From: Patescibacteria group bacterium
GTDB taxonomy: Bacteria; Patescibacteriota; JABMPQ01; JAQVVF01
Reading direction: 5' to 3'
Length of the DNA: 64,000 nt
Assembly: GCA_041662665.1 (NCBI GenBank)
Contig: JBAZSC010000004.1
Coordinates: forward strand, 10,464 to 74,463
Shown here: one piece after another, positions 6,233-48,258 of the stretch
Layout of the letters: every line of letters begins with the position of its first letter
Numbering within the stretch: the stretch's first letter is position 1
Translations under genes and position numbers: made by a program
Notes under the pieces: model-generated
What the model was told of the DNA's origin: nothing
Seen by the model: the letters and a program-made list of their open reading frames with translations, nothing else
The model's database searches: none

Positions 6233-8623
6233 TTATTCAAAAAAGAAATCTTGGCTATCCGATGTTTCTAAATTAGTTGAATTAGATAAGGCATTCTTCT
6301 CAGCAATCACGAATTTAATCTTTTTTAATGTTCTGAAGTAAAATGATGGAGCAAATGGTCTGTTCTTTGTCTTGATATCTAAAGGATTTGGAACAGGATT
6401 TTTAGGTATCTTTACAAGATAATTTCTAATCTTAAATTTCAAAGTATGAGTTGTTTTGTTTTGATAAATTCTGTATGGTCCTCGCCAAATTCCGTCTCTA
6501 TCTTTAATAAATAGTCTTAAATTCTTTTCTTTGATCTTTGTCTTGTTTAATTTAGATTTTGAATATCTAACAGAGACTCTGAAATTAATATGTTTATTAA
6601 CATTTTTCTGATAGGCTCTTTTGACTGTACCAATATTTGATAATAGCTTTAAGTATCCTGGATAGCTGTTTTTCTTTGTAAAACCATTTAGATGTTTCTT
6701 TTTGTTTCTAATTAATTTGATATATAGATCGTTGATTGATTTTTGTTTAGGAAGAAGATAGAAAAGAAGATCTGCATTATCTTGTTGACTTTGATAAGTT
6801 TGGTTTAAAATTACATTTTCTAAATTAAGTTTTTCAATGAAAGGAATAACTGGAGCTTCAGTATTAATAATATATTCTTCAGTTTTTACACTTTCTGAAT
6901 TTCCAACATTATCAACTGAAAAGAATTTTAGAGTTGTTGTTTCAGAAATTTCGATTGGCGAAGAATAGACTAATGATGAAGTAGTTGGTTCTGTGCCATC
7001 AGTTGTGTAATATGTTGTAGCGACGCCAGAATTATCATCAACTGCTGTCAAGGTAACAGATTGAACTGATGTGTAAGTTTCACCAATTGGAGAAGCAGTG
7101 GTTATTGGTGCTACTGTATCAATAACATAAATCTCTGTTTTCACAGCTTCTAAATTACCAATGGCATTTTCTGAAAAGAATTTTAAGGTTGTATTCGTTA
7201 AAATATCAATCGGACTAGAATATGTTGGTGAAGCTTCTGTTGGGTCTGAACCATCTGTTGTATAGTATGTTGTTGCTGTCTTATTTGGAGTCAAAGTAAT
7301 TGATTGAGCGCTATTGTATGTATCACCTACTGGAGAGGCAGTTGTAACTGGAATATCACTATCCAATACATCGACAATTGTTTGGGCAATTTCCGTATAC
7401 CCTGCTACATTTTCGTGTACTCCATCACCAGAATCATATATGGCCTGTATATCCCAGTAATTACCAGCGTCTCCACCAACTCTAAATTGCCCGATATGTG
7501 GTTTGCTGTCAACTACTATGGCGGACGAGTACGAAGTGGCTATCAGATTTACAAGGTGTGTTTCCCAATCACTTCTTATCTGCCAGTTAGCATTCGACCT
7601 TGCAGTGAATGGTGTCGATAGCAGAACTACAGGTATAATATTATTAGTTACACAGGCATCAAGCATTGAAGTCCAATTGGCAAGAAAGATTGCCTCGGCC
7701 CCTTCTGCACTTGTGTCATCATTTGCGCTGGCTTCTATTATTGCCATCCTGGGGTGTAAATTAACCACATCATTCGTAAATCTTGCAGCAATTTGGGTAG
7801 ATGTTTGACTTCCAATACCCATATTCTGATATGTTGCAGAATGCAAAAGAGAGAATTGGTAACTAATAGAACTACTAAGTGAATATGTCGTACTGTTTTC
7901 AATAAACGAATAGTTTGCTGGATGTCCAGCCACAATAGAATCTCCAATATATACTATTTGAGGAGCTTGCATATAAACTTTGACAGGAAGTATTGAAGTG
8001 TATGGAGATTGTGCCGACCAATTATAATTAGTCGCACTAGGAGTCGCATCGTAAGCAAAATAGGCTGAGTTAGCCGCTTGACCAATTAATACATTCCATT
8101 GGTTACTACCTGCTCCACTAATAACTATTCCACATGCGATATAGTCTCCCTCTTGCACTGTCCAGGTAGTAGAGGGTGTAATATTTTTAGTCGCAGGTAA
8201 ACCAGTTAATTGGGCTAATACGTCTTCTTGATAAATTCTATCAAAAGTTGCGCCATTCTTACGCCATATCTGTATATAATAATTAGTTATATTAGTAACA
8301 TTATTTACGTGAATAGACAAATGGTCTATGACTCCATTTTGTCTAATACGCGACCTGTTATTATTAAGTAACCGATATCCGCTTGTATGTAATGACCCAT
8401 CGACACCCGAGTTGCCACCAACAGTTAATATTGCATCATAGCCACCAGCTTCAACAATATTCGAATTTGGAGCCATATCCCATGCATATGTAGAAGTAGG
8501 TACAAGCAAAATAAGTATCGGGATTAACAAGACCGCAAGTAAAATTAAAAAAGAGTTAAAAATTTTTACTTTTCCATTAAGCCCCCCCCCTCGTACTTTT
8601 TTGTTTATATTTAAATTATCCAT
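6233..8623 (-). CDS. Secreted SGNH/GDSL-family hydrolase with two chitobiase/hexosaminidase-C-like (YYTTDG...) beta modules and a lysine-rich C-terminal domain
   Basis: N-terminal TM/signal peptide. SGNH block I VYIGDSIVAG and block V DSGDGVHEN. Two tandem copies of about 85 aa (TTYYTTDGSDPT...LKFFS). Basic C-terminal 200 aa resembling the C-termini of the 22030-33614 paralog family. Confidence 0.65.
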   Translation of the reverse strand: MDNLNINKKVRGGGLNGKVKIFNSFLILLAVLLIPILILLVPTSTYAWDMAPNSNIVEAGGYDAILTVGGNSGVDGSLHTSGYRLLNNNRSRIRQNGVIDHLSIHVNNVTNITNYYIQIWRKNGATFDRIYQEDVLAQLTGLPATKNITPSTTWTVQEGDYIACGIVISGAGSNQWNVLIGQAANSAYFAYDATPSATNYNWSAQSPYTSILPVKVYMQAPQIVYIGDSIVAGHPANYSFIENSTTYSLSSSISYQFSLLHSATYQNMGIGSQTSTQIAARFTNDVVNLHPRMAIIEASANDDTSAEGAEAIFLANWTSMLDACVTNNIIPVVLLSTPFTARSNANWQIRSDWETHLVNLIATSYSSAIVVDSKPHIGQFRVGGDAGNYWDIQAIYDSGDGVHENVAGYTEIAQTIVDVLDSDIPVTTASPVGDTYNSAQSITLTPNKTATTYYTTDGSDPTEASPTYSSPIDILTNTTLKFFSENAIGNLEAVKTEIYVIDTVAPITTASPIGETYTSVQSVTLTAVDDNSGVATTYYTTDGTEPTTSSLVYSSPIEISETTTLKFFSVDNVGNSESVKTEEYIINTEAPVIPFIEKLNLENVILNQTYQSQQDNADLLFYLLPKQKSINDLYIKLIRNKKKHLNGFTKKNSYPGYLKLLSNIGTVKRAYQKNVNKHINFRVSVRYSKSKLNKTKIKEKNLRLFIKDRDGIWRGPYRIYQNKTTHTLKFKIRNYLVKIPKNPVPNPLDIKTKNRPFAPSFYFRTLKKIKFVIAEKNALSNSTNLETSDSQDFFFE

Positions 8624-8725
8624 TTTGTTTTAATTAATTTGTATTTTTAATTCTAAAAAATACAAAACAACTCACAGAGTTTTATCAAAATTATTATAGC
8701 ACAAAATATTATTTTCTAAAAATCA

Positions 8726-9010
8726 TCACACAAAAAACTTATCCACATCTATTTTATTTTTCTTAATTTCAATTCCTTCTTGTCTTAACAATTTTATTTT
8801 CTTTTTTAATCCTTTATTATATCCTCCAACAAAACCATCACTTCTTATCACTCTATGACATGGCACTTCTTTATTAAAATTTTTATTCAAAATATTACCA
8901 ACAGCACGATAAGCTCTAGGTTTATTTATCTTCTTTGCAATTTTTTTATAAGTAATAATTTTACCTTTTGGAATTTGCTTACAAATTTTATAAACTTCTT
9001 CTTTAAACAT
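8726..9010 (-). CDS. MGMT-family (methylated-DNA-protein-cysteine methyltransferase) DNA-binding domain protein, stand-alone C-terminal domain
   Basis: 94 aa with the PCHRVI active-site Cys motif and a helix-turn-helix region. Confidence 0.6.
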   Translation of the reverse strand: MFKEEVYKICKQIPKGKIITYKKIAKKINKPRAYRAVGNILNKNFNKEVPCHRVIRSDGFVGGYNKGLKKKIKLLRQEGIEIKKNKIDVDKFFV

Positions 9011-9083
9011 AAATTTATTATATCAAAAAAGCCTACTAAAATTGAAGTAGACTTTTTTTAAATTTTTAAAAATGATATTTAAA

Positions 9084-9155
9084 TACCGCCTAGGGGAATC
9101 GAACCCCTGTTGTCAGGATGAAAACCTGATGTCCTAGCCACTAGACGAAGGCGGC
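9084..9155 (-). tRNA. tRNA-Glu (anticodon UUC)
   Basis: The reverse complement, GCCGCCTTCGTCTAGTGGCTAGGACATCAGGTTTTCATCCTGACAACAGGGGTTCGATTCCCCTAGGCGGTA, folds as a cloverleaf with a TTC anticodon and a GGTTCGATTCC T-arm. It resembles bacterial tRNA-Glu. Confidence 0.8.
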
Positions 9156-9223
9156 ACAATTATTCTATATACACAGAATAATACTAAAATTACTTAAAGT
9201 CAATACTCAAACAATATATTATT

Positions 9224-9232
9224 TGTTATAAT
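9224..9232 (+). promoter_or_regulatory. Extended -10 promoter element (TGtTATAAT) upstream of the M23 peptidase gene
   Basis: tgttataat sits 24 nt upstream of the ATG at 9256. Confidence 0.35.
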
Positions 9233-9255
9233 AAAATAAATATTACATAAAATTC

Positions 9256-10782
9256 ATGAAAATAAAAACAACAATTTTAATTTTGTTATGTTTTCTTTTT
9301 ACTCCTTTTTTAACATTAGCGGAAGGCTCATCTGCCATATCCTACAGTTTTACTTGGCCATTAGATAAATGGATCTTTGACATGGAAGGTCAAAAATTTG
9401 GCACTATCAGAGGATCTGGGATTTATCATCTTGGCGATGATATTGGAATACAAGCAAACTCACCAGTTTATGCAATTGCCACAGGAGTTGTAAAAAATAT
9501 TGGCGTTTATACTGATTTCGGCACTGTTATTTTAATTGAACACACATTAGCAAATCAAGAAAAAATTGTTTCATTATATGGTCATCTTGGACGAGACACT
9601 CAAGTTGAAAAAGGACAATTTGTTAATAAAAATCAAATTATTGGTTATATCGGTACTACAGATGTTAATGGAGGCTGGCCAGAACATCTTCATTTCGGAA
9701 TCAGAAAAGGCGCCTATGTTACAAATTGGGTCTATTGGGGCTTAGGGTCAAAGGACAAATTAAATGATTGGCATAATCCAACTGATTTTTTATGGTACAA
9801 AATTAATAATCCAGATGTTAATTCTGGAAAAATTGTAACCTCCCCAAATTATCCTGGACGATCACACATTAGAATTTTTGACGAACAAGGTCTTGCCATT
9901 CCAACTTTTGATTTCTTCGCTTACCCTCCAAAGAACAAACAAGGATCTCAAATTTCTCTTGGCGATATCAATAATGATCAAAAACAAGAATTAATAATTA
10001 GCTCAAATAGTTATAAACCACAAATAAAAATTTTTAACAAAAATTCACAAGACTTTATTGCCAAATTCAAACCATTCTCCAAAAAATATAATGGCCAAAT
10101 TAATCTTGCAACGACAGATTTAAATTTAGACGGTCAAGATGAAATTATTGCCACATCTAGTTCAAATCAATATCCAAAAATAAAAATATTTTCTTTATCC
10201 GCCGAAGTCCCGCAGGACGAAGGCGGACTATACAAAACAACAAACACTTTTATAGAATTAACAAAAATTCCAAGTCCATTTAGCCATAAAATAAAATGCG
10301 GAATTAATTTAACAACTATTGATCTAAATAATGATGGCAAGAAAGAGATTCTCGCTACACCAGCCAATAATAAAAAATCAGTTTTAAAATATTGGGACGG
10401 CACAACTTGGCAAATTTTAAAATCCAGGATTTTCAAAAAAACTACCGCAAAATTAACAACTGGCGATATTGATGCAGATGGCAATGAAGAAATAATTGCT
10501 GGCTCACAATCAAATACAAGATCAGTCATCAAAATTATTAATAAAAATGGACACATCAGAAAGAAAAAAATTAAACCATTTGCCAGATATAATCAAGACG
10601 GAATAAATATTTCAACAGTTGATTACAATAATGATGGCATTACTGAAATAATTACTTCAATTGCCAAAAATGGCTCGCCTAGAATTAAAGTTTTTCAATA
10701 TCCTCAAAATATTGCCATTGCCAATTTTTTAGCCTATAATGAAAATTTCACTGGTGGTGTAAATATAGTGGGAATAAAATAA
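9256..10782 (+). CDS. Secreted M23-family metallopeptidase fused to FG-GAP/VCBS-like repeats
   Basis: Signal peptide. M23 motifs HLGDDIG (HxxxD) and EHLHFGI (HxH). At least five DxNxDGxxE repeats (DINNDQKQE, DLNLDGQDE, DLNNDGKKE, DIDADGNEE, DYNNDGITE). Confidence 0.8.
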   Translation: MKIKTTILILLCFLFTPFLTLAEGSSAISYSFTWPLDKWIFDMEGQKFGTIRGSGIYHLGDDIGIQANSPVYAIATGVVKNIGVYTDFGTVILIEHTLANQEKIVSLYGHLGRDTQVEKGQFVNKNQIIGYIGTTDVNGGWPEHLHFGIRKGAYVTNWVYWGLGSKDKLNDWHNPTDFLWYKINNPDVNSGKIVTSPNYPGRSHIRIFDEQGLAIPTFDFFAYPPKNKQGSQISLGDINNDQKQELIISSNSYKPQIKIFNKNSQDFIAKFKPFSKKYNGQINLATTDLNLDGQDEIIATSSSNQYPKIKIFSLSAEVPQDEGGLYKTTNTFIELTKIPSPFSHKIKCGINLTTIDLNNDGKKEILATPANNKKSVLKYWDGTTWQILKSRIFKKTTAKLTTGDIDADGNEEIIAGSQSNTRSVIKIINKNGHIRKKKIKPFARYNQDGINISTVDYNNDGITEIITSIAKNGSPRIKVFQYPQNIAIANFLAYNENFTGGVNIVGIK

Positions 10783-10796
10783 CTGCACTAAAATTA

Positions 10797-10890
10797 CAAA
10801 TCCCAAATTCCAAACAAATTACAAACCACAAATTACAAATCGCTTTTTTGTGATTTGAAATTTGGGATTTGTTTGGAATTTGGAATTTGT
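10797..10890. repeat. Long imperfect inverted repeat of the caaattccaaa / tttggaattg oligo-repeat family
   Basis: The left arm (caaatcccaaattccaaacaaattacaaacc...) is the reverse complement of the right arm (...atttgggatttgtttggaatttggaatttg) around a ttttttg loop. Confidence 0.7.
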
Positions 10891-10904
10891 TATTTAAGAC
10901 ACGT

Positions 10905-20355: not shown

Positions 20356-20452
20356 ATCTCAAATTCCAAACAAATACCAAATCACAATACACAAAGATTT
20401 TTGGAATTTGGAATTTGGAATTTGTTTGGGATTTGGAATTTGGGATTTTAAT
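20344..20452. repeat. Long inverted repeat, caaattccaaa family
   Basis: tacaaatctcaaattccaaacaaatacc... pairs with ...ttggaatttggaatttggaatttgtttgggatttggaatttggg. Confidence 0.7.
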
Positions 20453-21023: not shown

Positions 21024-21162
21024 ATCAAGAATTATGATTAGAATTATGAATTACTGAATAACGATTTTTTTAATTTTCATAATTCTCAATTCAATATTCA
21101 AATCATCATTCATAATTCATCATTCATAATTCATAATTCATAATTCATAATTCATAATTCAC
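21010..21162. repeat. Imperfect inverted oligo-repeat (gaattatga / tcataattc words)
   Basis: gaattatgaatcaagaattatgattagaattatgaatt lies opposite (cataattcat)n x about 6. Confidence 0.6.
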
Positions 21163-22029: not shown

Positions 22030-24078
22030 TTATCTACCTATGGCATAATATCTTTCTGAAAAATCAAATGGAGAATTCAAATAAATCGTAAAAGTATTTT
22101 CTTTGTTATTTTGTCTGGCGTCTAAATCAGACCATTCTCTTAGTTCAACATCATATAATTTTAAATGCAAGTCGCTTTCTTTTAAGCCAGTCATTTTCTT
22201 TTTTAAAACTTTAAATTCTTTTTTAGTATAATAAAAAATCACTTTAATTTTAAAGCTATCAGACAATTGATTTAAATCAGTTGTTATCAACCAATTTTTT
22301 TTCAACAACATATTTTCTGCATTAACATAAGTTATTGGATATTTTTTAAATCTTTGCACTTGCCAATAATAATTATATTTTTTAAGACTCTTAGAATATT
22401 TCTTAAAAACAAAATCAAAATCATTAGCAAAATAATTATGGTTTTTTCCTTTAATCTTGACTGTTTTATCGTTTGCTTTCTTAGTTACAAATTTAGCTTT
22501 TTTAATTACATACTTTTTACTGACAACAGAAGATTGATTGCCAGCATTATCAATTGCCATAAATTTCAAAGTCATGTCTTTGGAAACAACAATTTTCTTG
22601 CTGTAAACATCGGAAGTTGTTTTTGGCTTCTTGCCATTAGTTGTATAATAAATTTTATCCACGCCAGAAAGAGCATCAGTTGCTGACAAAGCAACTTTTT
22701 TAATATTTTTATAAGTGCCTTTTTTTACTGATGCCAAAACTTCTGGAGCTGTCGCATCATAAACAATGCTGGCTGACACTGCTGCTGTTTCTGCATACCA
22801 AGTATCTCGAAATTTTGCATAAACAGTTTTTGTCCCCTCGCTAGCTGATAAAGTAAAAGACTGCGAAGTTCCATATGTCGTCCATGCTGATCCAAAAGAA
22901 CTGCTGTTTTCTGTTGTTGCCATTTCTAATGTATCGCTTGAAGAAGACAAACCAAGCGTTAAACTTGAAGAATTAGTGTAAGTTGCTCCAGAATTAATTA
23001 TTAATGCTGCTAAAGACGGACCAGGAGTATAGGTATAAACCAAACCAGTAGCAATATCATAATTACACACTTGCGACCGATTATTAGAATCAACATCAAT
23101 AGAAGTATAATAGCCAGAACTAGAAGCACCTATAGTATATGTCGCCCAAGAGCCAGACACATTAGTCGCATATTTCAAACCATTGCCAGAATAAGTAATT
23201 CTAACTTTATCATTAGAATCAATTGCCAAAGAATTATTTGATCCCACAGTGCCAGAACTGTCTAAAATTTGTACTGTCCCCCAAAAGCTGGGCCTACCAG
23301 TAATATACTTCAAATCATAACTTACATTATCAAAATAACAAATATGAACATTATCGCCGGAATCAACGCCAAGATCCATATGCGTAGAAGTATAGTCACC
23401 CATATCAACATCATCCAAAGTTTCTCTCACCCAACTCCCAGAAGAATTTGTTACAAATCGCAGATGATTATTAGTATCATCATAATAACTTATCTGCGGA
23501 TAGTTATTGGAATCTAACTCAATTGCTGTATATTTTCCCATATCAGTACTTGTATCATCAACCACTTCTGTGCTCCAAGAACCATAATGGCCTTTGGCAT
23601 ATTTCAAATCTTGTCCTGTTGAATAATAATAAGAAATATGCGCTTCGCTGTCAGATCCAACCGCAATTGAAGTGTACCTGCCTACAACACCAGTTGCATC
23701 TACCTGTTCCGTCTGCCATGATCCAGAAACATTAGTTGCATATTTCAAAGAAGTATTATCTGTATCATAATAACTGATATGCGCTTTATTATTAGAATCC
23801 AATGCTAATGAAGAATATCTACCAACATCGGGACCGCCAAAACCATCTACTATCTCGCTTGTCCAAGAACCAGTTAAATTATTGACATATACCAAATCTT
23901 CATCACCTATAGCATAATAACAAATATGAATTTTATCATTCGTATCAACTTTTAATTCAGTGTCTGTAATATTTGCTAATATCGTAATTGTACTCGCTGA
24001 CCAGTCAGCCGCTTTTACATTTTGCCCAACAAAAATTACACTAATTAAAATTAAAAATAACCACAAAATTTTTCGCAT
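22030..24078 (-). CDS. Secreted repeat protein, paralog 1 of 6: signal peptide, YATN-type propeller-like repeats, chitobiase-C-like module and lysine-rich C-terminal domain ending YYAIGR
   Basis: Signal peptide MRKILWLFLILISVIFVGQNVKAADW; repeats of about 46 aa (SLALDSNNKAHISYYD.TN..LKYATNVSGSW); a KIYYTTNGKKP...KFMAIDNAGN module; lysine-rich tail. Confidence 0.8.
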   Translation of the reverse strand: MRKILWLFLILISVIFVGQNVKAADWSASTITILANITDTELKVDTNDKIHICYYAIGDEDLVYVNNLTGSWTSEIVDGFGGPDVGRYSSLALDSNNKAHISYYDTDNTSLKYATNVSGSWQTEQVDATGVVGRYTSIAVGSDSEAHISYYYSTGQDLKYAKGHYGSWSTEVVDDTSTDMGKYTAIELDSNNYPQISYYDDTNNHLRFVTNSSGSWVRETLDDVDMGDYTSTHMDLGVDSGDNVHICYFDNVSYDLKYITGRPSFWGTVQILDSSGTVGSNNSLAIDSNDKVRITYSGNGLKYATNVSGSWATYTIGASSSGYYTSIDVDSNNRSQVCNYDIATGLVYTYTPGPSLAALIINSGATYTNSSSLTLGLSSSSDTLEMATTENSSSFGSAWTTYGTSQSFTLSASEGTKTVYAKFRDTWYAETAAVSASIVYDATAPEVLASVKKGTYKNIKKVALSATDALSGVDKIYYTTNGKKPKTTSDVYSKKIVVSKDMTLKFMAIDNAGNQSSVVSKKYVIKKAKFVTKKANDKTVKIKGKNHNYFANDFDFVFKKYSKSLKKYNYYWQVQRFKKYPITYVNAENMLLKKNWLITTDLNQLSDSFKIKVIFYYTKKEFKVLKKKMTGLKESDLHLKLYDVELREWSDLDARQNNKENTFTIYLNSPFDFSERYYAIGR

Positions 24079-24152: not shown

Positions 24153-26000
24153 TTATCTTCCGATTGCATAATATCTTTCCGAATAATTAAATGGCGAACT
24201 TAAATAAATCATAAAAGTATTTTTTTTAGTATTCGGCTTGACTTGCAAATCCGCCCATTCTCTTGATTCAGAATTATATAATTTTAGATAAAGATTTTTC
24301 TCTTTCAAACCTTTTACCTTTTTCTTTAAAGCCTTAAATTCTTTATTAGTATAAGAAAATACTAATTTTAATTTTACTGGTTTGCTAGAATTATATTTTT
24401 GATAATCAGTTTTAATTTTCCAATATTTCTTTATCAAATTATGCTTTGCGTCAACAAAAAGTTTCGTATACTTTTTTTGCCTCTCAACCAAAAAATATCT
24501 TTTTGTCTTTTTAAAACTTTTTGGAAATTTTTTGAAAGTCAAATTTAATTCTCTTGCATAATATTTTTTATTTTTTTTCTTGATTTTAACTTCATTCTTT
24601 TTCTTGGATTTTTTTGTTGTAAATTTTGGATTGCCAACATATTTAACAATTTGTGAAACAACATCTGATTCAGCATGCCAAGCATCTCTATATTTTACAT
24701 AAACAGTTTTCTTGCCTTTTTTTGCTGGCATTTTAAATGTCTTATCAGCCAAATAACTTTGCCAAGTTTTGTTTGAAAAATCAGATTTTGTTGACACAAT
24801 CATTTCGACCGGACTTTCAGTCAAAGAAGATGTAATATGAATTTTTCTATAAGCAGAATATTTACGTCCATAATTTATTTCTGTTATTTGATTTGAAGGA
24901 CCAGGAGTATTAGCAAGTTTTAATTTCTCGCTTGTCTGATCATAATATGCGATATAGGCTCTGTTTTTTGAATCCACATCCAAAGATGGATAACCAACAA
25001 CATCGCTGTCATTCAAAGTATTTTTTACAAAAGAATCAGTTACATTGCTCATATAGCCTATCCAATTTCCTCCTCCAACTGTTCCGCCATAATAACTTAA
25101 ACGAACCTTATTATCAGAATCTAAAGCTAAAGAATTATTAAATGCTGTAAAATCAGGCAAGATTTCACTATCCATATCGCTTATCGTCCAATTACTGTCT
25201 GCCGTTGTTTTAGTCGCATATTTAAGCGTCGTATTAGGATTAGCTAAATACAAATAAGCCAAATGTGCTGTATTATTGCTATCAAACTTCAAAGAATTAA
25301 AATAACCAGTTCTATAAGTACTATCAATCGCGCTCAATACCCAACTGCCGGAAACATTAGTCGCATATTTCAAATAATCATTTGTCCCTTCAAAATAAGC
25401 AATATGAACTTTATTATTAGAATCAATAGCCAGAGAATTAAACGTTCCACTATTATCAACCGTATCCAAAGTCTCATAAACCCAATCACCAGTAACATTA
25501 GTCGCATATTTCAAATGATCATTAGTACCATCATAATAAGCAATATGCGCCTTATTATTTGAATCCAAGGCTAAAGACGGATATGAACCAGCTTCAATTG
25601 TCGGATCTAAAATTGTTACTTGCCAAGAACCAGAAGCATTAGTCGCATACCGCAATTGATCTTCAATCATAGCATAATAAGCCAAATAAAAATTATTATT
25701 AGAATCAACTGCCGAAGAAATAAATAATCCTGCATAAAGAGTATCATCAACAGTCTGTTGCTCCCAAGCCCCAGAAGCATTTGTAGCATACTTTATTTTA
25801 TGATCAGTATTATCAAAATAACCAATATAAATCTTATCATTACTGCCAACTTTTAAAGAAACAACAGCCGCACCTTCTGACACCATTGGCACGTTTCCCA
25901 TATCAGCCACATCGCTAAAAACCCAATCAGCAGCCTTAACATTTTGGCCAAAAATAAACAAAGTAAAAACAACAATCAAAATTAACAATCCTTTTTTCAT
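24153..26000 (-). CDS. Secreted repeat protein, paralog 2 of 6
   Basis: Same architecture: signal peptide, 7 repeats, beta module after the TPGPS linker, and a lysine-rich C-terminal domain ending RYYAIGR. Confidence 0.8.
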   Translation of the reverse strand: MKKGLLILIVVFTLFIFGQNVKAADWVFSDVADMGNVPMVSEGAAVVSLKVGSNDKIYIGYFDNTDHKIKYATNASGAWEQQTVDDTLYAGLFISSAVDSNNNFYLAYYAMIEDQLRYATNASGSWQVTILDPTIEAGSYPSLALDSNNKAHIAYYDGTNDHLKYATNVTGDWVYETLDTVDNSGTFNSLAIDSNNKVHIAYFEGTNDYLKYATNVSGSWVLSAIDSTYRTGYFNSLKFDSNNTAHLAYLYLANPNTTLKYATKTTADSNWTISDMDSEILPDFTAFNNSLALDSDNKVRLSYYGGTVGGGNWIGYMSNVTDSFVKNTLNDSDVVGYPSLDVDSKNRAYIAYYDQTSEKLKLANTPGPSNQITEINYGRKYSAYRKIHITSSLTESPVEMIVSTKSDFSNKTWQSYLADKTFKMPAKKGKKTVYVKYRDAWHAESDVVSQIVKYVGNPKFTTKKSKKKNEVKIKKKNKKYYARELNLTFKKFPKSFKKTKRYFLVERQKKYTKLFVDAKHNLIKKYWKIKTDYQKYNSSKPVKLKLVFSYTNKEFKALKKKVKGLKEKNLYLKLYNSESREWADLQVKPNTKKNTFMIYLSSPFNYSERYYAIGR

Positions 26001-26050
26001 TATTTTATTTTAATTAACTTTTAACTTTAGATTTTAGACTTTTAACTCAC

Positions 26051-27895
26051 CTATCTGCCGATAGCATAATATCTTTCCGAATAATTAAATGGCGAATTTA
26101 GATAAATAATAAAAGTATGATTAGTTGTATCAGGTTTAACTTGTAAATCAGCCCAACTATCAGATTCAGAAACATAATATTTCAGATGCAAATTCTTTTC
26201 TTTTAATCCTTTAACTTTCTTTTTCAAAACTTTGAATTCATCGCTAGTATACTGAAATACTAATTTTAATCTAACTTGCTTGCTTCCTGTATATTTATTA
26301 AAGTCAGTATTTACTTTCCAATATTTTTTTAACAAATTGTGCTTTGCATCTGCAAAAAGTTTTGTGTATTTTAATTGTCTTTCAATTAGAAAATATCGCT
26401 TTGTATTTTTGAATTTAGTTGGATATTTTTTGAATTTAAGCTTTAGATCTCTTGCGTAATAAGTTTTATTCTTTTCTTTAACTTTCACTTCATTAGATTT
26501 CCTTGCTTTTTTTGTTACAAACTTTATTGGATTGCCAGTATATTTTACTTCTTGAGAAACAACATTAGATTCAGCATGCCAAATATCTCTGAATTTCATA
26601 TAAACAGTATTTTCACCTTTTTCTGATGGCATTCTAAATGTTGTATCAGCTGAATATGTTTTCCAAGTTTTATCTGAAAAATCAGATTTTGTTGAAACGA
26701 TCATTTCTGTTGGAGTTCCTGCAACTGTTGATTTTATATTAATATTTCTTGTTGCTGAATAATTTCTACCATTATTTATTTCAGAAGAAGTGATACTTGG
26801 ACCAGGAGTGAAAGCATAATTCAAATCATTATCAGTAGTATTATAATATGAAATATGAATACGATTATTTGAATCTACGTCAAGTGAAATTTGATTATAG
26901 TATCCAAATAATACCACTATGTATGATCCAACATTATCAATCACATTATATGTCCATGACCCTGAAGTATTAGTTGCATACTTTAATTGTTGCTCAGTAA
27001 CATCATAATAACCAATATGTACACCATTATTGTTATCAACAGCTATCGAAGTATTATATCCTGCTTGATTTGCCGTATCCAAATTCGTTGCAACCCAAAC
27101 ACCAGTAGAATTAGTAATGTATTTCAAATCTAAATTTGTAGCATCTAAATAACTAATATGGATGCTATTGTTAGTCCCAATCGCCAAAGAAGAATACCAT
27201 CCAGCCTCAACTGAATTATCTAAAGTACTTGTTGACCAAACACCAGACAAACTATTCGTCGCATATTTTAGAGTACTATTAGTTTCATCACGATAACTAA
27301 TATGCGCAAACCCATTTGAATCAATACCAAGCGAATTAAAAATGCCCACATCACCAACTGAATCAACTGTTGTCAACACCCAAGAACCGGTTGCATTAGT
27401 TGCATATTTTAAATCACTATTAGTTGAATCATAATAGCTAATTTGAACCGCATTATTTGCATTCAATACTATTGATGTATTATTTATATCAAAAATACCT
27501 ACTGTAATAGTACCTGAATTATCAACAGTTGTAGCAACCCAAGAACCAGAAGCATTTGTGGCATATTTCAAATTACTATTAGTATCATCAATATAACTAA
27601 TATGAGATTTGTTATTACTATCAATTGCTATTGAAACACCTTCGCCTACGTTTCCTGCACTATCTACAGTTGTAATAGCCCACGAACCTGACTCATTTGT
27701 TATATATTTCAAATCATTAGTACCAACTTCAAAATAAGCAATATGCACAAAGCCATTATGATCAACAGCAATCGCATTATCAGCGCCAGTATTTACAGCA
27801 TCGATTGAAGATTTCTGCCAATCCGCAGCCTTCACATTTTGGCCAAAGATAAACAAACCAACAATGGCCAGACAAATTAATAAATACTTCCGCAT
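26051..27895 (-). CDS. Secreted repeat protein, paralog 3 of 6
   Basis: Same architecture; ends RYYAIGR. Confidence 0.8.
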   Translation of the reverse strand: MRKYLLICLAIVGLFIFGQNVKAADWQKSSIDAVNTGADNAIAVDHNGFVHIAYFEVGTNDLKYITNESGSWAITTVDSAGNVGEGVSIAIDSNNKSHISYIDDTNSNLKYATNASGSWVATTVDNSGTITVGIFDINNTSIVLNANNAVQISYYDSTNSDLKYATNATGSWVLTTVDSVGDVGIFNSLGIDSNGFAHISYRDETNSTLKYATNSLSGVWSTSTLDNSVEAGWYSSLAIGTNNSIHISYLDATNLDLKYITNSTGVWVATNLDTANQAGYNTSIAVDNNNGVHIGYYDVTEQQLKYATNTSGSWTYNVIDNVGSYIVVLFGYYNQISLDVDSNNRIHISYYNTTDNDLNYAFTPGPSITSSEINNGRNYSATRNINIKSTVAGTPTEMIVSTKSDFSDKTWKTYSADTTFRMPSEKGENTVYMKFRDIWHAESNVVSQEVKYTGNPIKFVTKKARKSNEVKVKEKNKTYYARDLKLKFKKYPTKFKNTKRYFLIERQLKYTKLFADAKHNLLKKYWKVNTDFNKYTGSKQVRLKLVFQYTSDEFKVLKKKVKGLKEKNLHLKYYVSESDSWADLQVKPDTTNHTFIIYLNSPFNYSERYYAIGR

Positions 27896-27951
27896 AATTT
27901 TTTTGTTTTAAATTTTTAAATTTCTGAAACTAAATTTATATAAATTATATA

Positions 27952-29802
27952 TTATTTACCAATTGCATAATATCTTTGCGAAAAATTAAACGGAGATTTC
28001 AAATAAACCGTAAAAGTATTTTTCTTTGTATTGCGTTTAGCTGACAAATTAGTCCACTTTTTTGATTTCAAATTATATGCTTTTAGATATAAATTCTTTT
28101 CTTTCAACCCTTTTACTTTTTTCTTTAATTTTTTAAATTCTTTTTTAGAATATGAAAATACTAATTTTAATTTAACATTCTTACTTAATTTATATTTTGA
28201 AAAATCAGTATTAATTTTCCAATATTTTTTTAACAAATTATGCTTTGCATCCACAAAAAGTTTTGTAAATTTCTTTTTTCTCACAACCAAAAAATATCTT
28301 TTTGTTTTTTTAAAAGCTTTTGGATATTTTTTGAAAGTCAAATTTAATTCTCTAGCATAATATTTTTTATTTTTCTTTTTAATCCTTACTTCATTTTTTT
28401 TCTTCGCTTTTTTTGTAACAAACTTTGGATTACCGACATATTTGACATTAAAAGATACAACAGCAGATTCAGCACTATAGACATCTCTAAATTTAACGTA
28501 AATTGTTTTTATGCCTTTTTTTGAAGGCATTTTAAAAATCGTATTAGCCAAATAACTGCTCCAAATCTTATTAGAAAAATCAGACTTTGTCGAAACAATC
28601 ATTTCAGTAGGACTGCCAGAAACTGAAGATGCAATATTAATTTTTCTATAAGCTGAATAATCCCTTCCATTATTTATTGTTATTGTTTGAACTGAAGGTC
28701 CAGGAGTATAAGTATAATTCAAACTAGTATTAACTAAACCAGCACTAGTTTTAAAATAAATAACATGTGTTCGATTCATTGAATCTATTCCTAACGATAT
28801 TGGACGATAATATGCATTAAAAGTTTCAAAAGAAAACAAAAGACTGTACGATCCAGTATCCTGTTGATTATAAATTGACCATTGTCCAGAAACATTTGTC
28901 GCGTATTTTAATCTGCCATTTAAAATATCATGATAAGCAACATGCAATTTATTATTATCATCAATTTTTAATGAAGGATAATAGCCCACTTGACCTGCAC
29001 TGTCATTATCAATAACACTTGCAACCCATGCTCCTGAAATATTAGTAATATATTTTAAATCAGAGTTAGTATAATCCAAATAAGCAATATGAATTTTATT
29101 ATTTGAATCAATCGCTATGGAAGACTGAAGACCTACCGATCCATTAGAATCTAAAACTACAGATAGCCAAGAACCACTATCATTAGTAATATATTTTAAA
29201 TCGGAATTAGTAGTATCACGATAAGAAATATGCACCTTATTATTTGAATCCAATGCCAAAGAAGAACTACCTCCAACATCAGTACTAGAATCTATTGTTT
29301 CATTTGCCCATGAACCAGACACGTTTGTCGCATATTTCAAATTGCTATTATCTGAATCATAATAGCTTACATATATTTTTTTATTTCCATCCAAAGCCAT
29401 TGATACTTGTCCCAAGCCAATAGTTCCACTATTATCAATTATCTCGAAAACCCATGTTCCATTAACATTATTCGCATATTTTAACCAATCATTCGTTCTA
29501 TCTTCATAAACAATATATACTTTTCCATTAACATCTATTCCCAAAGAAGAATTACCAACATTAACAGAGTTATCAACAATTTCTGCCATCCAAGTACCAG
29601 AAGAATTAGTCGCATATTTCAAATCAGAATTAGTATTATCAAAATAACTAATATGAACTTTGTTATTTTGATCAATTGCTAATGCATTAACACTTCCAGC
29701 AGATGCCTCCAATTCCTGCGACTGCCAATCAGCAGCCAAAACATTTTGGCCAAACAGAAACAGACCAACAATGGCCAGACAAATTAATAAATACCTCCGC
29801 AT
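27952..29802 (-). CDS. Secreted repeat protein, paralog 4 of 6
   Basis: Same architecture; the 7 repeats are counted explicitly; ends RYYAIGK. Confidence 0.8.
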   Translation of the reverse strand: MRRYLLICLAIVGLFLFGQNVLAADWQSQELEASAGSVNALAIDQNNKVHISYFDNTNSDLKYATNSSGTWMAEIVDNSVNVGNSSLGIDVNGKVYIVYEDRTNDWLKYANNVNGTWVFEIIDNSGTIGLGQVSMALDGNKKIYVSYYDSDNSNLKYATNVSGSWANETIDSSTDVGGSSSLALDSNNKVHISYRDTTNSDLKYITNDSGSWLSVVLDSNGSVGLQSSIAIDSNNKIHIAYLDYTNSDLKYITNISGAWVASVIDNDSAGQVGYYPSLKIDDNNKLHVAYHDILNGRLKYATNVSGQWSIYNQQDTGSYSLLFSFETFNAYYRPISLGIDSMNRTHVIYFKTSAGLVNTSLNYTYTPGPSVQTITINNGRDYSAYRKINIASSVSGSPTEMIVSTKSDFSNKIWSSYLANTIFKMPSKKGIKTIYVKFRDVYSAESAVVSFNVKYVGNPKFVTKKAKKKNEVRIKKKNKKYYARELNLTFKKYPKAFKKTKRYFLVVRKKKFTKLFVDAKHNLLKKYWKINTDFSKYKLSKNVKLKLVFSYSKKEFKKLKKKVKGLKEKNLYLKAYNLKSKKWTNLSAKRNTKKNTFTVYLKSPFNFSQRYYAIGK

Positions 29803-29874
29803 AATTTTTTTGTTTTTATTCCACCAAAGTTCCGCAGAACGTAGGTGGATTAATTTTTAAAAACTTAAAATAAA

Positions 29875-31686
29875 CTATTTTATTCCAATCCCAAAAGTCC
29901 TTTTGCTAAAAGAAATTGGAGAATCAATTATTAAAGTAAAAGTTCTCTTTTTTAAATTTAAAGTTGCAAATGAATTTTTCCACTTTTTCTTTAATTTATT
30001 GTAATATAATAATTTCAAATCACTTTGTTTTAATGTCTTATTATTCTTTTTTAATTTTTTGAATTCTTTTTTAGAATAATTAAAAGTCACTTTTAATCTG
30101 AAATTATTCTTGGCTTTTTTATAAGTATATTTATTTAAATCATCTGTCACTAGCCAATATTTTTTTAATAGCTTATTTTTGTCTATTTTCTTAAAATAGT
30201 TACTGAATAATTTTGATTGAACAAAATATTTTTCTTTTTTTAAATTTTTTGGATATTTTGTCATTACAAAATTCAAATCTCTCGCAGAATAAACCTTGCC
30301 TTGCTTTTTCAACAAAACTTCATTAACTTTTCTAGCCTTTTTTGTTACAAATTTTGGATTTTTAATGTATCTAATTGTCTTTGTTAAAGCACCTGATTCA
30401 GCAAACCATTGATCTCTGAAATTGACATAAACTGTTTTTGTTCCATCAACTTTTGATAAAGTAAAAATCTTTGATGTATCATAAGCTTCCCAATTTGCAT
30501 TTGCAAAATCAGCATTTTCAGAAATTATCATTTCAGTTGGACTGCCTGCTGAAGATAAAGACAATGCTACTGTTCTTAAGGCAGTATATGCTTTATTAGA
30601 ATTAATCTTTAAACTTGTATTTGTTGGTCCCATAGAAGCAGCGTATTTTAAATCGCCATTTGTATGATCCTGATAAGCAATATGAATTCTATTTAGATCA
30701 TCAACCTTAATTGAAGTTTGAAAACCTAAAATTAAAGTATCGCTTCCTTGATCAACAATATATTTCTGAAAGGTTCCTGAAATATTTGTCGCATATTTCA
30801 AAGAATAATTTGGATAACCATCATGATAACTAATATGAGCATAATTATTTTTATCCAAGCTCAAACTAGAAAACATTCCAGTCAATCCTCCTGCTAAAAC
30901 TGCAGTATCAATTGTTGTTTTCTGCCAACTTCCAGATAAATTTGTAATATATTTCAAAGCTTGCACTCCGCCATCATAATAGCTAACATGCACTTTATTA
31001 TTTGTATCAACAGCAATTGAAGAATATTGTCCAACTCCTCCATTATCAATTGCTGAGCTTAAAAAAGATCCTGATTCATTTGTTGCGTATTTTAACCATT
31101 GATTACTGCTATCATAATAGCTAATATGAGCTTTGCCATTTGAATCAACTGCAATTGATGTATTGCTTGTAGAAGATAATGTTTCTACATCGTAGAAAAA
31201 CCAAGTTCCAGATGACTTGATTGCATATCTAACTTTTGATCCATTATAATAGCTAATATTCAATCGATCACTTGAATCAATCGCCATATCCACAAAAGTC
31301 CCGCCCAAAGCATCTAAAACAGAATTTCCCCAATTTCCTCCAGCATTTGTGGCATATTTCAAATCATCATTTACAGCATCATAATAAGCAATATGAATTT
31401 TGTTCGCTGAATCAACCACTAAAGAAGGATAAAGCCCAACCATTACTGAACTCTCGTCAATTATCGTAATTTGAAAACTGCCAGAACTATTAGTCGCATA
31501 TTTTAATTTACCATCACCAAGATATGCAATATGAACATATCCTAACGAATCAACACTAATTGATGTTCCATCTCCAGCAAAACCAGTTGCATCAACTGTT
31601 GTTTTTTGCCAATCTGCTGCCAACACAGTATGACCAAACAACATCAGGCAAAACATTGCCACCAAAATTAATAATTTCTTTTTCAT
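29875..31686 (-). CDS. Secreted repeat protein, paralog 5 of 6 (more divergent)
   Basis: Signal peptide, LKYATN repeats, beta module and a lysine-rich tail ending FGIGIK. Confidence 0.75.
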   Translation of the reverse strand: MKKKLLILVAMFCLMLFGHTVLAADWQKTTVDATGFAGDGTSISVDSLGYVHIAYLGDGKLKYATNSSGSFQITIIDESSVMVGLYPSLVVDSANKIHIAYYDAVNDDLKYATNAGGNWGNSVLDALGGTFVDMAIDSSDRLNISYYNGSKVRYAIKSSGTWFFYDVETLSSTSNTSIAVDSNGKAHISYYDSSNQWLKYATNESGSFLSSAIDNGGVGQYSSIAVDTNNKVHVSYYDGGVQALKYITNLSGSWQKTTIDTAVLAGGLTGMFSSLSLDKNNYAHISYHDGYPNYSLKYATNISGTFQKYIVDQGSDTLILGFQTSIKVDDLNRIHIAYQDHTNGDLKYAASMGPTNTSLKINSNKAYTALRTVALSLSSAGSPTEMIISENADFANANWEAYDTSKIFTLSKVDGTKTVYVNFRDQWFAESGALTKTIRYIKNPKFVTKKARKVNEVLLKKQGKVYSARDLNFVMTKYPKNLKKEKYFVQSKLFSNYFKKIDKNKLLKKYWLVTDDLNKYTYKKAKNNFRLKVTFNYSKKEFKKLKKNNKTLKQSDLKLLYYNKLKKKWKNSFATLNLKKRTFTLIIDSPISFSKRTFGIGIK

Positions 31687-31763
31687 GATTTTCCCTCGTC
31701 CGCCATGCTTCTTCGCTTAAGCGAAGAGCGAAGGCGGATATTAAATAGTAATTATTTTAAAAT

Positions 31764-33614
31764 TTATTTTTTTCCTATTGCATAATAAATTTCATTCCAA
31801 GATATCGGCGAAATCAAAGTGATAGCAAATGTCCTATTTTTCACAGAATGTACGGCATTTAAATTATGCCATTTCTTTTCTTTAACATTATAATATTTTA
31901 AAACCAAACTACTTTCTGACAAACCTTTATTTCTATTTTTTAAAGTCTTGAATTGCTTTTTTGTATATTTAAAAACAAATTTAGTTTTAAAATTATCAGC
32001 TAATTTATATTTATTAAAATTACCTTTTATTTTCCAATATTCTTTAATCAAATTTTTCTTGGCTGCAATATAAGTTTTTGAATATTTTCTATATCTTTTT
32101 ACTTGCCAAGAATATTTTGCTTTTTTCAAACCTTTTGGCAATTTCAAAAATTTTAAATAAAATTTTTGAGCAGTATATTTTTTATTTTTCTTTTTTATTA
32201 AAATTTCTTTGCTTTTTGCATTTTTTGTTACAAAAGTTGGATTTGGCAAATATTTAATTGAATCAGAAACAGTTGCTGATTCCGCATACCATTGATCTCG
32301 AAATTTTACATAAATAGTCTTTTTGCCAACCCTAGAAGACATTTCAAAAACTTTATTCACATTATATGTTTCCCATTCTGCTCCAGCAAAAGTAGAATAT
32401 TCAGACAACATCATTTCTGTTGGATTGCTAGTTGCAGATAAAACCAAATCAACATCTTTAAAATTTGTATATTTTTTACCTGCTTCTATTACAACTTCTG
32501 GACTTATTGGACCAAGTACATCAGCAAATTTTACTTCACCATCCCAAGGAGAATAAGTATGCAGATAAAATAGACCAACGTAAAGTCTGTTTGAAGAATC
32601 CATAGCCAAAGAAATTGGCTGTTCAGCTGTATGAATTGCATCTCCAATATCACTAACAGCTACAGTTGAAAAACTTGTCCCAACATTATTTGCCAGCTTA
32701 AAATCAAAGTTATCCACATCATAATATCCAATTCTTACTCTTGAATTGCTATCAACTACTAGAGAAGAATATATTCCAACATCTCCAGCAGTATCAACTG
32801 TCGAATTTGACCAATAGCCCAACATATTATTTGCGTATTTCAAATCTCGATTCCCGCGATCATAATAACTAATATGAACGAAATCACTATCGTCAATTTT
32901 TATTGAACTAAACTCACCAACATTACCGCTATCAACGGTTTGAGCCACAAAATTTCCAGAAGAATTTGTAATATATTTTAAAGATAGATTTGCCGAATCA
33001 TAATAACTGATATGGACTTTATTGTAATCATCAACAGTTAATGAAGAAAATAGTCCGACAAAAGTACTACTGCTATCTATTGTTGATAATGTAAAACCAG
33101 TTCCATTAGAATTTGTTGCGTATTTTAAATCGTCATTTGTTAAATCATAATAACTAATATGCACATAACCTAATGAATCAACACCAATCGAATCATACAT
33201 ACCAACTTCGCCTGTTGTATCAATTGATGATGCTGCCCACACTCCAGAAGCATTAGTCGCATATTTCAAATCAGAATTAGCATAATCATAATAACTAACA
33301 TGCGCCTTATCATTATAATCTATTGCAATTGATGGATACTGTCCCAAACCAGAACCAAGATCAATTGTTTCACTCACAAAACTGCCAGATGCGTTTGTTG
33401 CATATTTTAGATAATAAGTTGCACCAGTTGTCTCTAAATAAACCAGATGCGCTTTGCTATTTGAATCCAAAGCAATTGCCACAATAGGACCAACACCTAC
33501 TCCTCTCGACAATGACTCAAATTGCCAATCCGATGCCTTTGCTTGACCAAAAAAACAAAAGACACAAGACAACGTTGCAAAAACCACTCCTAAAATTAGA
33601 GATTTTTTTCTCAT
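31764..33614 (-). CDS. Secreted repeat protein, paralog 6 of 6 (more divergent)
   Basis: Signal peptide, LKYATN repeats and a lysine-rich tail ending YYAIGKK. Confidence 0.75.
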   Translation of the reverse strand: MRKKSLILGVVFATLSCVFCFFGQAKASDWQFESLSRGVGVGPIVAIALDSNSKAHLVYLETTGATYYLKYATNASGSFVSETIDLGSGLGQYPSIAIDYNDKAHVSYYDYANSDLKYATNASGVWAASSIDTTGEVGMYDSIGVDSLGYVHISYYDLTNDDLKYATNSNGTGFTLSTIDSSSTFVGLFSSLTVDDYNKVHISYYDSANLSLKYITNSSGNFVAQTVDSGNVGEFSSIKIDDSDFVHISYYDRGNRDLKYANNMLGYWSNSTVDTAGDVGIYSSLVVDSNSRVRIGYYDVDNFDFKLANNVGTSFSTVAVSDIGDAIHTAEQPISLAMDSSNRLYVGLFYLHTYSPWDGEVKFADVLGPISPEVVIEAGKKYTNFKDVDLVLSATSNPTEMMLSEYSTFAGAEWETYNVNKVFEMSSRVGKKTIYVKFRDQWYAESATVSDSIKYLPNPTFVTKNAKSKEILIKKKNKKYTAQKFYLKFLKLPKGLKKAKYSWQVKRYRKYSKTYIAAKKNLIKEYWKIKGNFNKYKLADNFKTKFVFKYTKKQFKTLKNRNKGLSESSLVLKYYNVKEKKWHNLNAVHSVKNRTFAITLISPISWNEIYYAIGKK

Positions 33615-39395: not shown

Positions 39396-39518
39396 TTTGG
39401 CAGAAGAATCTTGAATCTAGAATTTGGAATCTAGAATGAATAATGAATTTAGAATACAGAATTCTCGATTCTAAATTCCAAATTCTATTCCAGATTCTAG
39501 ATTCCAGATTCTATATTC
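39396..39518. repeat. Inverted oligo-repeat element (gaatctagaat words)
   Basis: ttgaatctagaatttggaatctagaatg is paired with cagattctagattccagattctat. Confidence 0.6.
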
Positions 39519-39526
39519 TAATTTTT

Positions 39527-40582: not shown

Positions 40583-40618
40583 ACTAATTTTCCGACGCTC
40601 TGACGTTCTGACGCTCTG
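40583..40618. repeat. 8-nt tandem microsatellite, about 4 units of CTCCGACG/GACGCTCT
   Basis: tccgacgctctgacgttctgacgctctg. Confidence 0.7.
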
Positions 40619-40620
40619 AT

Positions 40621-41378: not shown

Positions 41379-41428
41379 AGTCTGACGCTCCGACGCTCCA
41401 ACGCTCCGACGTTCCCACGTTCCCAAAT
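41379..41428. repeat. 8-nt tandem microsatellite (CTCCGACG)n, about 6 units
   Basis: gtctgacgctccgacgctccaacgctccgacgttcccacgttccc. Confidence 0.7.
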
Positions 41429-42467: not shown

Positions 42468-42546
42468 GGCGTTCTGACGATCCAAAGCTCCCACGCTCCG
42501 ACGCTCCGAAAGTCCCACGCTCCGACGCTCCCACGTCCCACGTTCC
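42468..42546. repeat. 8-nt tandem microsatellite, about 9 units (CTCCGACG/CTCCCACG)
   Basis: gttctgacgatccaaagctcccacgctccgacgctccgaaagtcccacgctccgacgctcccacgtcccacgttccc. Confidence 0.7.
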
Positions 42547-42548
42547 CA

Positions 42549-43081: not shown

Positions 43082-43117
43082 CAACCGTTCGTTCTCTTGA
43101 CAACAAGGGGGGAAAAA

Positions 43118-48146: not shown

Positions 48147-48258
48147 AAATCTCAAATTACAAACAAATCTCAAATCACAAAGATACAAACTTTAAATCCT
48201 ATTTTGTAATTTGTCTTTTGTAATTTGTTTGGAATTTGGAATTTGGAATTTTCGTAAC
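48147..48258. repeat. Long inverted repeat, caaattccaaa family, overlapping the 3' end of the 48192-49766 gene
   Basis: Left arm ctcaaattacaaacaaatctcaaatcacaaag; right arm gtaatttgtcttttgtaatttgtttggaatttggaatttggaatt. Confidence 0.7.

Follow-up and report, generated by a model that had tools for sequence, protein, structure and literature searches.

A nine-G tract in the leader-peptide region of a secreted SGNH esterase, a candidate slipped-strand contingency switch in a Patescibacteria-type genome

The esterase gene and its G9 tract

The stretch of DNA considered here (64,000 nucleotides of contig JBAZSC010000004.1, referred to as the window) encodes on its minus strand a 796-aa protein, whose open reading frame (ORF) carries an uninterrupted run of nine G residues close to its 5' end (Table 1). 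An initial annotation of the window had proposed this tract, G9, as a phase-variation switch in the gene of a secreted SGNH hydrolase. The enzyme assignment is borne out by Pfam, which places Lipase_GDSL_2 (PF13472) at aa 226-409 with a score of 37.7 bits, above the gathering cut-off of 32.9, and by GDSL-like proteins in the PDB, which are matched at E = 3e-9. The catalytic blocks I, II, III and V are intact and are invariant, or nearly so, in an alignment of 22 sequences.

As judged by hand, the N-terminus combines the features of a Sec-type signal peptide, that is a charged n-region, a hydrophobic h-region and small residues at positions -1 and -3. The n-region (aa 1-22, MDNLNINKKVRGGGLNGKVKIF) contains five basic and one acidic residue, giving a net charge of +4, and holds the GGG run. 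It is followed by an h-region at approximately aa 23-41, which hydropathy analysis identified as the sole hydrophobic segment of the protein. Cleavage would likely take place behind T-Y-A and in front of W, where homologues align with the ends of FAYP-type signal peptides. The secreted esterase is probably retained at the cell surface. Exact look-ups of the products starting at ATG 8623, TTG codon 32, TTG codon 39 and ATG codon 50 returned no record, which is uninformative, as the homologue database also missed fragments present on the retrieved contigs L003, L004 and L008. The GC content of positions 7000-8500 (38-40%) was considered as a sign of recent transfer and set aside, since other housekeeping stretches are similarly high (37-40%).

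On the + strand, positions 8582-8590 read CCCCCCCCC, i.e. nine C, corresponding to G9 on the minus strand and agreeing exactly with the coding sequence AAA GTA CGA GGG GGG GGG CTT reported initially. Counted from M1 (8623-8621), the GGG triplets represent codons 12-14 rather than 11-13, and the GC content was measured at 31.4% for the window, as compared to ~28% initially stated for the genome. The claim that no other long G/C homopolymer occurs in the window proved right: G9 is the only G/C run exceeding six residues, the next longest being one G6 and four runs of five. First-order and third-order Markov models predict 0.023 and 0.003 G/C runs of at least nine residues per 64 kb, respectively. 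The same models predict 18-33 A/T runs of this length, as compared to none observed, the longest A/T run comprising eight residues. That is, the window sequence appears depleted of long homopolymers, G9 excepted. GGG provides 6% of the Gly codons in 24 other long ORFs of the window, and three consecutive GGG codons are not accounted for by coding needs. In ~495 kb of related loci, only two further G/C runs of at least eight residues occur, the equivalent tract of L008 and a G9 of L006. Thus, the tract is longer than the approximately seven to eight residues from which G/C homopolymers are regarded as hypermutable, and it is over-represented relative to base composition, as contingency loci are.

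Table 1. Features of the esterase locus in the window and of homologous loci with dinucleotide repeats (L- and P-numbers denote retrieved loci and proteins, respectively; see text)
Feature	Location	Strand	Basis
ORF of 796 aa, stop included in coordinates: signal peptide, conserved N-domain, SGNH/GDSL esterase, two CHB_HEX_C domains, basic C-terminal domain	6233..8623	-	ORF, Pfam, 81 homologues, PDB GDSL matches, motifs, hydropathy
Signal-peptide coding region, aa 1-47	8483..8623	-	One hydrophobic segment; signal peptides of FAYP/TFA type aligned there in homologues; manual assignment
ATG start, no other canonical start in the ON frame ahead of the tract; AAC in L008	8621..8623	-	ORF, leader survey, L008 alignment
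G9 homopolymer (C9 on + strand), Gly codons 12-14, proposed slippage tract	8582..8590	-	Sequence, run statistics, G10 in L008, frame simulation
TAA stop of the G10 (+1) frame, 15-aa product MDNLNINKKVRGGGA	8577..8579	-	L008 comparison, frame simulation
TAA stop of the G8 (-1) frame, 18-aa product ...RGGGLMEK	8566..8568	-	Frame simulation
SGNH/GDSL catalytic domain, aa 223-414: block I G227-D228-S229, II G269/G271, III N301-D302, V D400-x-x-H403	7382..7957	-	Pfam, PDB, alignment, motifs
Two CHB_HEX_C_1 / Fn3_assoc domains, ~aa 430-585	6869..7336	-	Pfam; internal repeat also seen
Basic C-terminal domain, aa 597-796, 42 K+R vs 14 D+E	6236..6835	-	Composition, homology to P0082
Promoter-like TTTAGA-16 nt-TATAAT with TG extension (TGcTATAAT), 10/12 matches, implied 5' untranslated region ~60 nt	8693..8720	-	Consensus match; regional count not above shuffles
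Patch of nine L008-vs-window substitutions, all transversions, including ATG to AAC	8604..8641 (L008:1701-1740)	-	Alignment
L069 / P0025: (GA)9 at L069:3040-3057, in frame, ON, 729 aa; n-region ...KIERERERV...	ENA ERZ27247363		Frame simulation
L068 / P0003: gene order as L069; (GA)9 at L068:5920-5937, ATG frame stops after 31 aa; (GA)10 gives 730 aa, (GA)7 gives 728 aa	ENA ERZ27247363		Frame simulation
L070 / P0020: (AG)9 at L070:2879-2896, then TAA directly, stops after 20 aa; (AG)8 gives 500 aa	NCBI Patescibacteria metagenome-assembled genome (MAG) GCA_042568285.1		Frame simulation

Tract length, reading frame and translation start

To follow the reading frame, the run length was edited in silico and the sequence translated from ATG 8623. 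G9 gives the 796-aa product and runs of six and twelve G give 795 and 797 aa, respectively, while translation ends after 18 aa with G8 and after 15 aa with G10. The initial annotation had foreseen truncation upon a change by one residue in either direction, which is what the simulation returns, at other lengths than the ~13 residues it gave. Codons 12-14 lie downstream of the ATG and ahead of the sole hydrophobic segment, and a change by a single unit in this position toggles the full product on or off, as the placement of a contingency repeat demands. The first canonical in-frame start downstream of the tract is TTG codon 32 within the h-region, and a charged n-region is not available from any alternative start. 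As this start is located inside the hydrophobic core, a cell in the OFF state would be unable to make an exportable protein.

The leader preceding ATG 8623 is A-rich and lacks a Shine-Dalgarno (SD) sequence, which also holds for nearly all other genes in the window and makes this start credible. Folding of the 5' region was no better than that of shuffled sequences (z = -1.3), and no Rfam family matched in this region. These results bear on a different explanation, namely that the G-run is a translational or RNA element (an internal SD-like pause, a frameshift stimulator or an mRNA structure) rather than a DNA switch, which we consider very improbable. G-runs do occur at SD positions in the gene pool, that is in front of ATG 43118 of the window and in L006, and an ATG follows the window tract at a distance of 4 nt. 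However, this ATG is out of frame and opens a three-codon ORF only (MEK-stop), no in-frame start is present within 18 nt downstream, and most genes in the window do without SD sequences; on these grounds, a role of the G-run as SD sequence for a downstream start was rejected. Moreover, the alternative frames stop at once and leave no second product, and the (GA)n repeats found at this site in homologues (see below) do not resemble SD sequences. The two other G-runs deserve a description of their own. The G6 of the window (43107-43112) ends 5 nt upstream of its ATG and is among the few SD-like sequences in the window. The G9 of L006 (L006:4345-4353) occupies an SD position, with 6 nt separating it from the start codon (ATG 4360) of a gene for a 58-aa membrane protein, and may represent a repeat-tuned translation start.

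A candidate tract-length variant in a near-identical contig and repeats in homologues

Exact-protein look-ups of neighbouring genes traced this organism to short contigs in three further data sets, and a scan with the neighbouring MGMT protein recovered L008 (JGI 3300014208, 3,612 bp). An exact DNA pattern spanning the tract had no match in metagenomes; it missed L008 because the flank of L008 differs. L008 corresponds to positions 10342..6732 of the window with 99.7% identity, and the sole indel is one extra G, which extends the tract to G10. Nine of the ten substitutions are crowded into 38 nt just upstream of the tract, at a distance of 13-51 nt from the run; they turn the ATG into AAC and alter three codons; the tenth mismatch lies elsewhere and is a transversion, too. 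There is no start codon upstream of the L008 tract in any frame, and the 1.87 kb downstream of the tract are 100% identical to the window. The initial annotation had named uniform G9 in relatives as the outcome that would speak against a switch. Among the close relatives, tract length is G9 in the window and G10 in L008, a single variant, which supports the proposal but is found beside a cluster of error-like transversions.

The substitution patch itself could reflect either a sequencing or assembly error or a real local burst of change beside the repeat. As an exotic possibility, repeat-associated error-prone repair may have hit the start codon as well. No donor or second copy for the patch (8604-8641) was found in the window, and comparison ruled out a small inversion as its origin. 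The target of a diversity-generating retroelement (DGR) was likewise dismissed: there is no second copy and no reverse transcriptase-like ORF with a YxDD motif in the window, and on neither strand are the substitutions specific to A.

Should the patch be erroneous, the tract could be stably G9, with G10 and the substitutions in L008 both caused by the homopolymer during sequencing or assembly and no real polymorphism present. Consistent with this explanation, all ten mismatches are transversions, nine of them lying in the patch, and the coding ones are non-synonymous or disruptive. Moreover, L005, a contig from another assembly (ENA), terminates at position 8628 inside the same patch, as would be expected upon poor k-mer support. 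However, a contig of 3.6 kb implies a coverage that should keep nine coincident errors out of the consensus, and the substitutions follow no simple dephasing pattern when the alignment is inspected by eye. In addition, a stable G9 would remove one line of evidence only, leaving in place the outlier statistics as well as the (GA)n homologues. We therefore regard a stable tract as improbable. Even more remote, to the point of being scarcely credible, is the idea that G9 of the window is an assembly artefact produced by poly-G read tails or a chimeric join. Two-colour Illumina chemistry does generate poly-G artefacts, but the run is embedded in a coherent ORF with its frame kept and a normal signal peptide following, and the same tract with an identical downstream flank is present in the independent JGI contig L008, which effectively refutes this explanation.

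Another contig, L004 (ENA ERZ27249449), is the same as the window through position 6664; in the segment compared from there (6665-6741) it departs from the window at ten sites, located in 6665-6731. The distances between these sites are multiples of three throughout, as expected if a single codon position is affected, and the changes comprise eight transitions and two transversions. Thus, variation in L004 looks natural, being mostly transitions, unlike the L008 patch with its transversions only, and it points to a diverged esterase allele and to a recombination boundary close to where the second CHB_HEX_C domain ends. As to the ends of the contigs, the JGI contigs L003 and L008 both break at 6689-6732, and L005 and L008 both begin exactly at position 10342 inside the gene for an M23 peptidase with FG-GAP repeats, although they derive from independent assemblies (ENA and JGI, respectively). 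The latter suggests a shared repeat or strain break point at 10342. Reading the contig break points as a sign of a variable island was abandoned as too confounded, because the assemblies are generally fragmentary.

In total, 81 homologues of the protein were collected, the best of which are 51-53% identical; a search of a genome collection yielded one match only, in Peribacteraceae (39% identity). P0002, the closest relative with genomic context, is encoded on L006, a phage-like contig of 23.9 kb with small co-directional genes, a phage-type primase/helicase and RNase H. A scan of viral contigs with the single protein gave no match, and a profile scan detected 19 further relatives on IMG/VR viral contigs. 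The family is thus shared by phages and cells of the Candidate Phyla Radiation (CPR). No 5' repeat was detected in the esterase genes of the 19 viral homologue loci, nor in those of L006 and L001. The C-terminal domain of the window protein is 64% identical to P0082, a stand-alone secreted protein of 228 aa from another Patescibacteria MAG. P0082 directly follows a bAvd gene and a reverse transcriptase gene in a DGR-like cassette (L067:107-2788); a template repeat/variable repeat pair was not found in the examined part of the L067 contig.

Three CPR homologues with 38-46% identity to the window protein (L068, L069 and L070; Table 1) carry a (GA)9-type repeat at the position equivalent to G9, i.e. 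likewise between the ATG and the hydrophobic core. The genes reside in CPR-like chromosomal contexts. In one of the three the repeat leaves the gene in frame, in the other two the frame is off by one unit, and the downstream ORFs are of full length. Hence, repeats at the same site are found in ON as well as OFF homologues with intact downstream ORFs. P0003, P0020 and P0025 share only 59-69% identity among themselves, and the flanks of their genes have diverged, while the repeat and the GTAAA following it are retained. Dinucleotide repeats of at least seven units were restricted to these three genes in 595 kb of retrieved loci. Public gene calls for P0003 (L068:6001) and P0020 (L070:3001) start at an internal TTG (MFCVGFLF... 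and MSSFAYP..., respectively) and lose the n-region. Consequently, the OFF genes are annotated as proteins without signal peptides, and these mis-calls look like a systematic annotation artefact of repeat-switched genes. L068 additionally contains a perfect hairpin, ATTCCCGC-GAAA-GCGGGAAT (L068:5944-5963), right after (GA)9 in the sequence coding for the n-region, which is missing from the syntenic L069.

The same comparisons bear on whether the tract is real and mutable but unselected. That is, G9 would be a chance expansion of Gly codons in an n-region free of constraint, and G10 as well as the OFF states of (GA)n would be inactivating mutations in incipient pseudogenes of a dispensable gene. 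L008 has lost the ATG in addition to the frame, which resembles inactivation and not reversible switching. Furthermore, the gene is accessory, given the moderate identity of its best homologues and the location of the closest one on a phage-like contig, and a diverged allele (L004) is present in the population. However, in every OFF case the downstream ORF is intact, extending over 1.87 kb of complete identity in L008 and over the full length in L068 and L070. Decay is also difficult to reconcile with retention of (GA)n among proteins that have diverged to 59-69% identity, with two repeat types arising at one position, and with the lack of other homopolymers of at least nine residues in the sequence. 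For these reasons we consider unselected decay unlikely.

A proposed contingency switch and its setting

Taken together, the data make it probable that G9 is a simple-sequence contingency switch acting by slipped-strand mispairing in the leader-peptide region of a secreted SGNH esterase. Slipped-strand mispairing during replication would alter the run length reversibly and at high frequency, and a clonal population would always contain a mixture of esterase-ON and esterase-OFF cells. As the three glycines are placed in the n-region, which is presumably unconstrained, the tract would come without cost in the ON state. At the same site in the homologous CPR genes, (GA)n may serve the same purpose, which would make repeat control a trait of the cellular, signal-peptide-bearing esterases. 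In other words, repeat control may have arisen with two repeat types, G9 and (GA)n, in cellular members of one enzyme family. Speculatively, the esterase could modify a surface glycan by de-O-acetylation, the glycan being a receptor for phages or a ligand in host attachment, and alternation between ON and OFF could provide bet-hedging. The sole hint at such a link between the enzyme and phage reception or host attachment is the location of many relatives on viral contigs.

Several points weigh against a switch. There is a single tract of this kind in the 64-kb window. The G10 allele adjoins nine transversions that destroy the ATG, possibly through error-prone sequencing near a homopolymer, which would weaken the G10 call. 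The frames of L068 and L069 differ by two extra bases upstream of the repeat and not by repeat number, so that ON/OFF differences between species are no proof of switching by themselves. Finally, the rationale involving phage receptors or host attachment is solely our inference.

Well-studied systems provide close parallels. In the AT-rich Campylobacter jejuni, nine is the modal length of the polyG/C tracts in phase-variable genes, and G8 and G9 tracts switch at high rates (PMC3401435). The polyG/polyC contingency genes of this species (e.g. cj1139 with G8 and cj0031 with G9, encoding capsule- or lipooligosaccharide-modifying enzymes) resemble the esterase gene in the AT-rich background (~30% GC) and in the intragenic G/C run, which stands out from base composition. 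In both cases, a change by one residue shifts the frame and truncates the product, and the targets are enzymes acting, presumably also in the case of the esterase, on surface structures. Unlike in C. jejuni, the tract described here belongs to a metagenomic organism of another phylum (CPR/Patescibacteria-type), resides in the n-region of a signal peptide and is the only one in the 64 kb. Leader-peptide repeats are known from Neisseria opa genes, which contain (CTCTT)n, and from outer-membrane protein genes of Helicobacter pylori with 5' (CT)n (oipA, sabA and others). Here too, the repeat follows the start codon and precedes the hydrophobic core of the signal sequence, and repeat number sets the frame of the exported protein. 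Moreover, the (CT)n of H. pylori is the complement of the (GA)n in L068, L069 and L070. The window gene differs from these examples in carrying a mononucleotide run, in having a secreted esterase as its product in place of an adhesin or porin, and in belonging to uncultivated organisms. With the SGNH/GDSL hydrolase superfamily, to which phage-encoded members (PHROG 6102, 'lipase') belong as well, the window protein shares Lipase_GDSL_2 and blocks I, II, III and V. It is distinguished by its signal peptide, the pair of CHB_HEX_C domains and a basic C-terminal domain that is lineage-specific, and its gene differs from the 19 viral loci and from the gene on L006 by the 5' repeat.

Phase variation through simple repeats is textbook knowledge for host-adapted pathogens such as Campylobacter, Neisseria, Haemophilus and Helicobacter. 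A full-text literature search retrieved no report of repeat-mediated phase variation in CPR/Patescibacteria; one paper joining the terms concerns, judged by its title, a host bacterium and its phage. The mechanism as such is classical. CPR cells lead a life attached to other microbes, and little has been learned so far about their surfaces. A repeat-switched esterase with phage-encoded relatives would offer a handle on how ultra-small bacteria vary their surface towards phages or hosts, and the convergence of G9 and (GA)n marks a gene family that can be screened by population metagenomics. On the practical side, gene callers cut repeat-switched genes at an internal TTG, as seen for P0003 and P0020, and thereby hide their signal peptides. 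A wider generalization, which we put forward tentatively and hold to be doubtful, is that CPR bacteria run contingency loci in which SGNH esterases shared with phages came under repeat control at least twice independently, through G9 and through (GA)n, and act as phase-variable modifiers or destroyers of glycans in episymbiont defence or as a host-range switch.

Neighbouring genes in the window encode GAPDH, PfkB, MGMT, the M23 peptidase with FG-GAP repeats, TsaD and a class I aminoacyl-tRNA synthetase, and further a PilB-type ATPase, RuvB, QueA and Wzy-like glycan functions. This gene content, together with the named relatives, fits a CPR/Patescibacteria genome. Contingency loci often, though not necessarily, go along with weak or absent mismatch repair. 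A Pfam scan of ~32 of the larger ORFs found neither MutS nor MutL; 64 kb says nothing about the remainder of the genome in this respect.

Several other features of the window were recorded. The + strand is strongly biased in composition, with 12,295 C as compared to 7,815 G. Five tandem ORFs of 603-616 aa with signal-peptide-like N-termini occupy positions 24153-33614 on the minus strand. Two of these N-termini are near-identical (MRKYLLICLA and MRRYLLICLA), and the one tandem ORF that was checked had no Pfam match. The ORF adjoining this array (22030-24078) encodes a CHB_HEX_C domain. Intergenic heptamer arrays are located just upstream of gene starts at 21076-21161, 20400-20448, 48203-48251, 10791-10891 and 39405-39521; they are of the types TTCATAA (12.6 copies), TTTGGAA (7 copies), AAATTAC and AGAATCT, and could be variable themselves. 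Finally, GC-rich octamer arrays composed of GACGCTCC and variants thereof are present in an AT-rich region at 40594-40619, 41384-41423 and 42476-42548.

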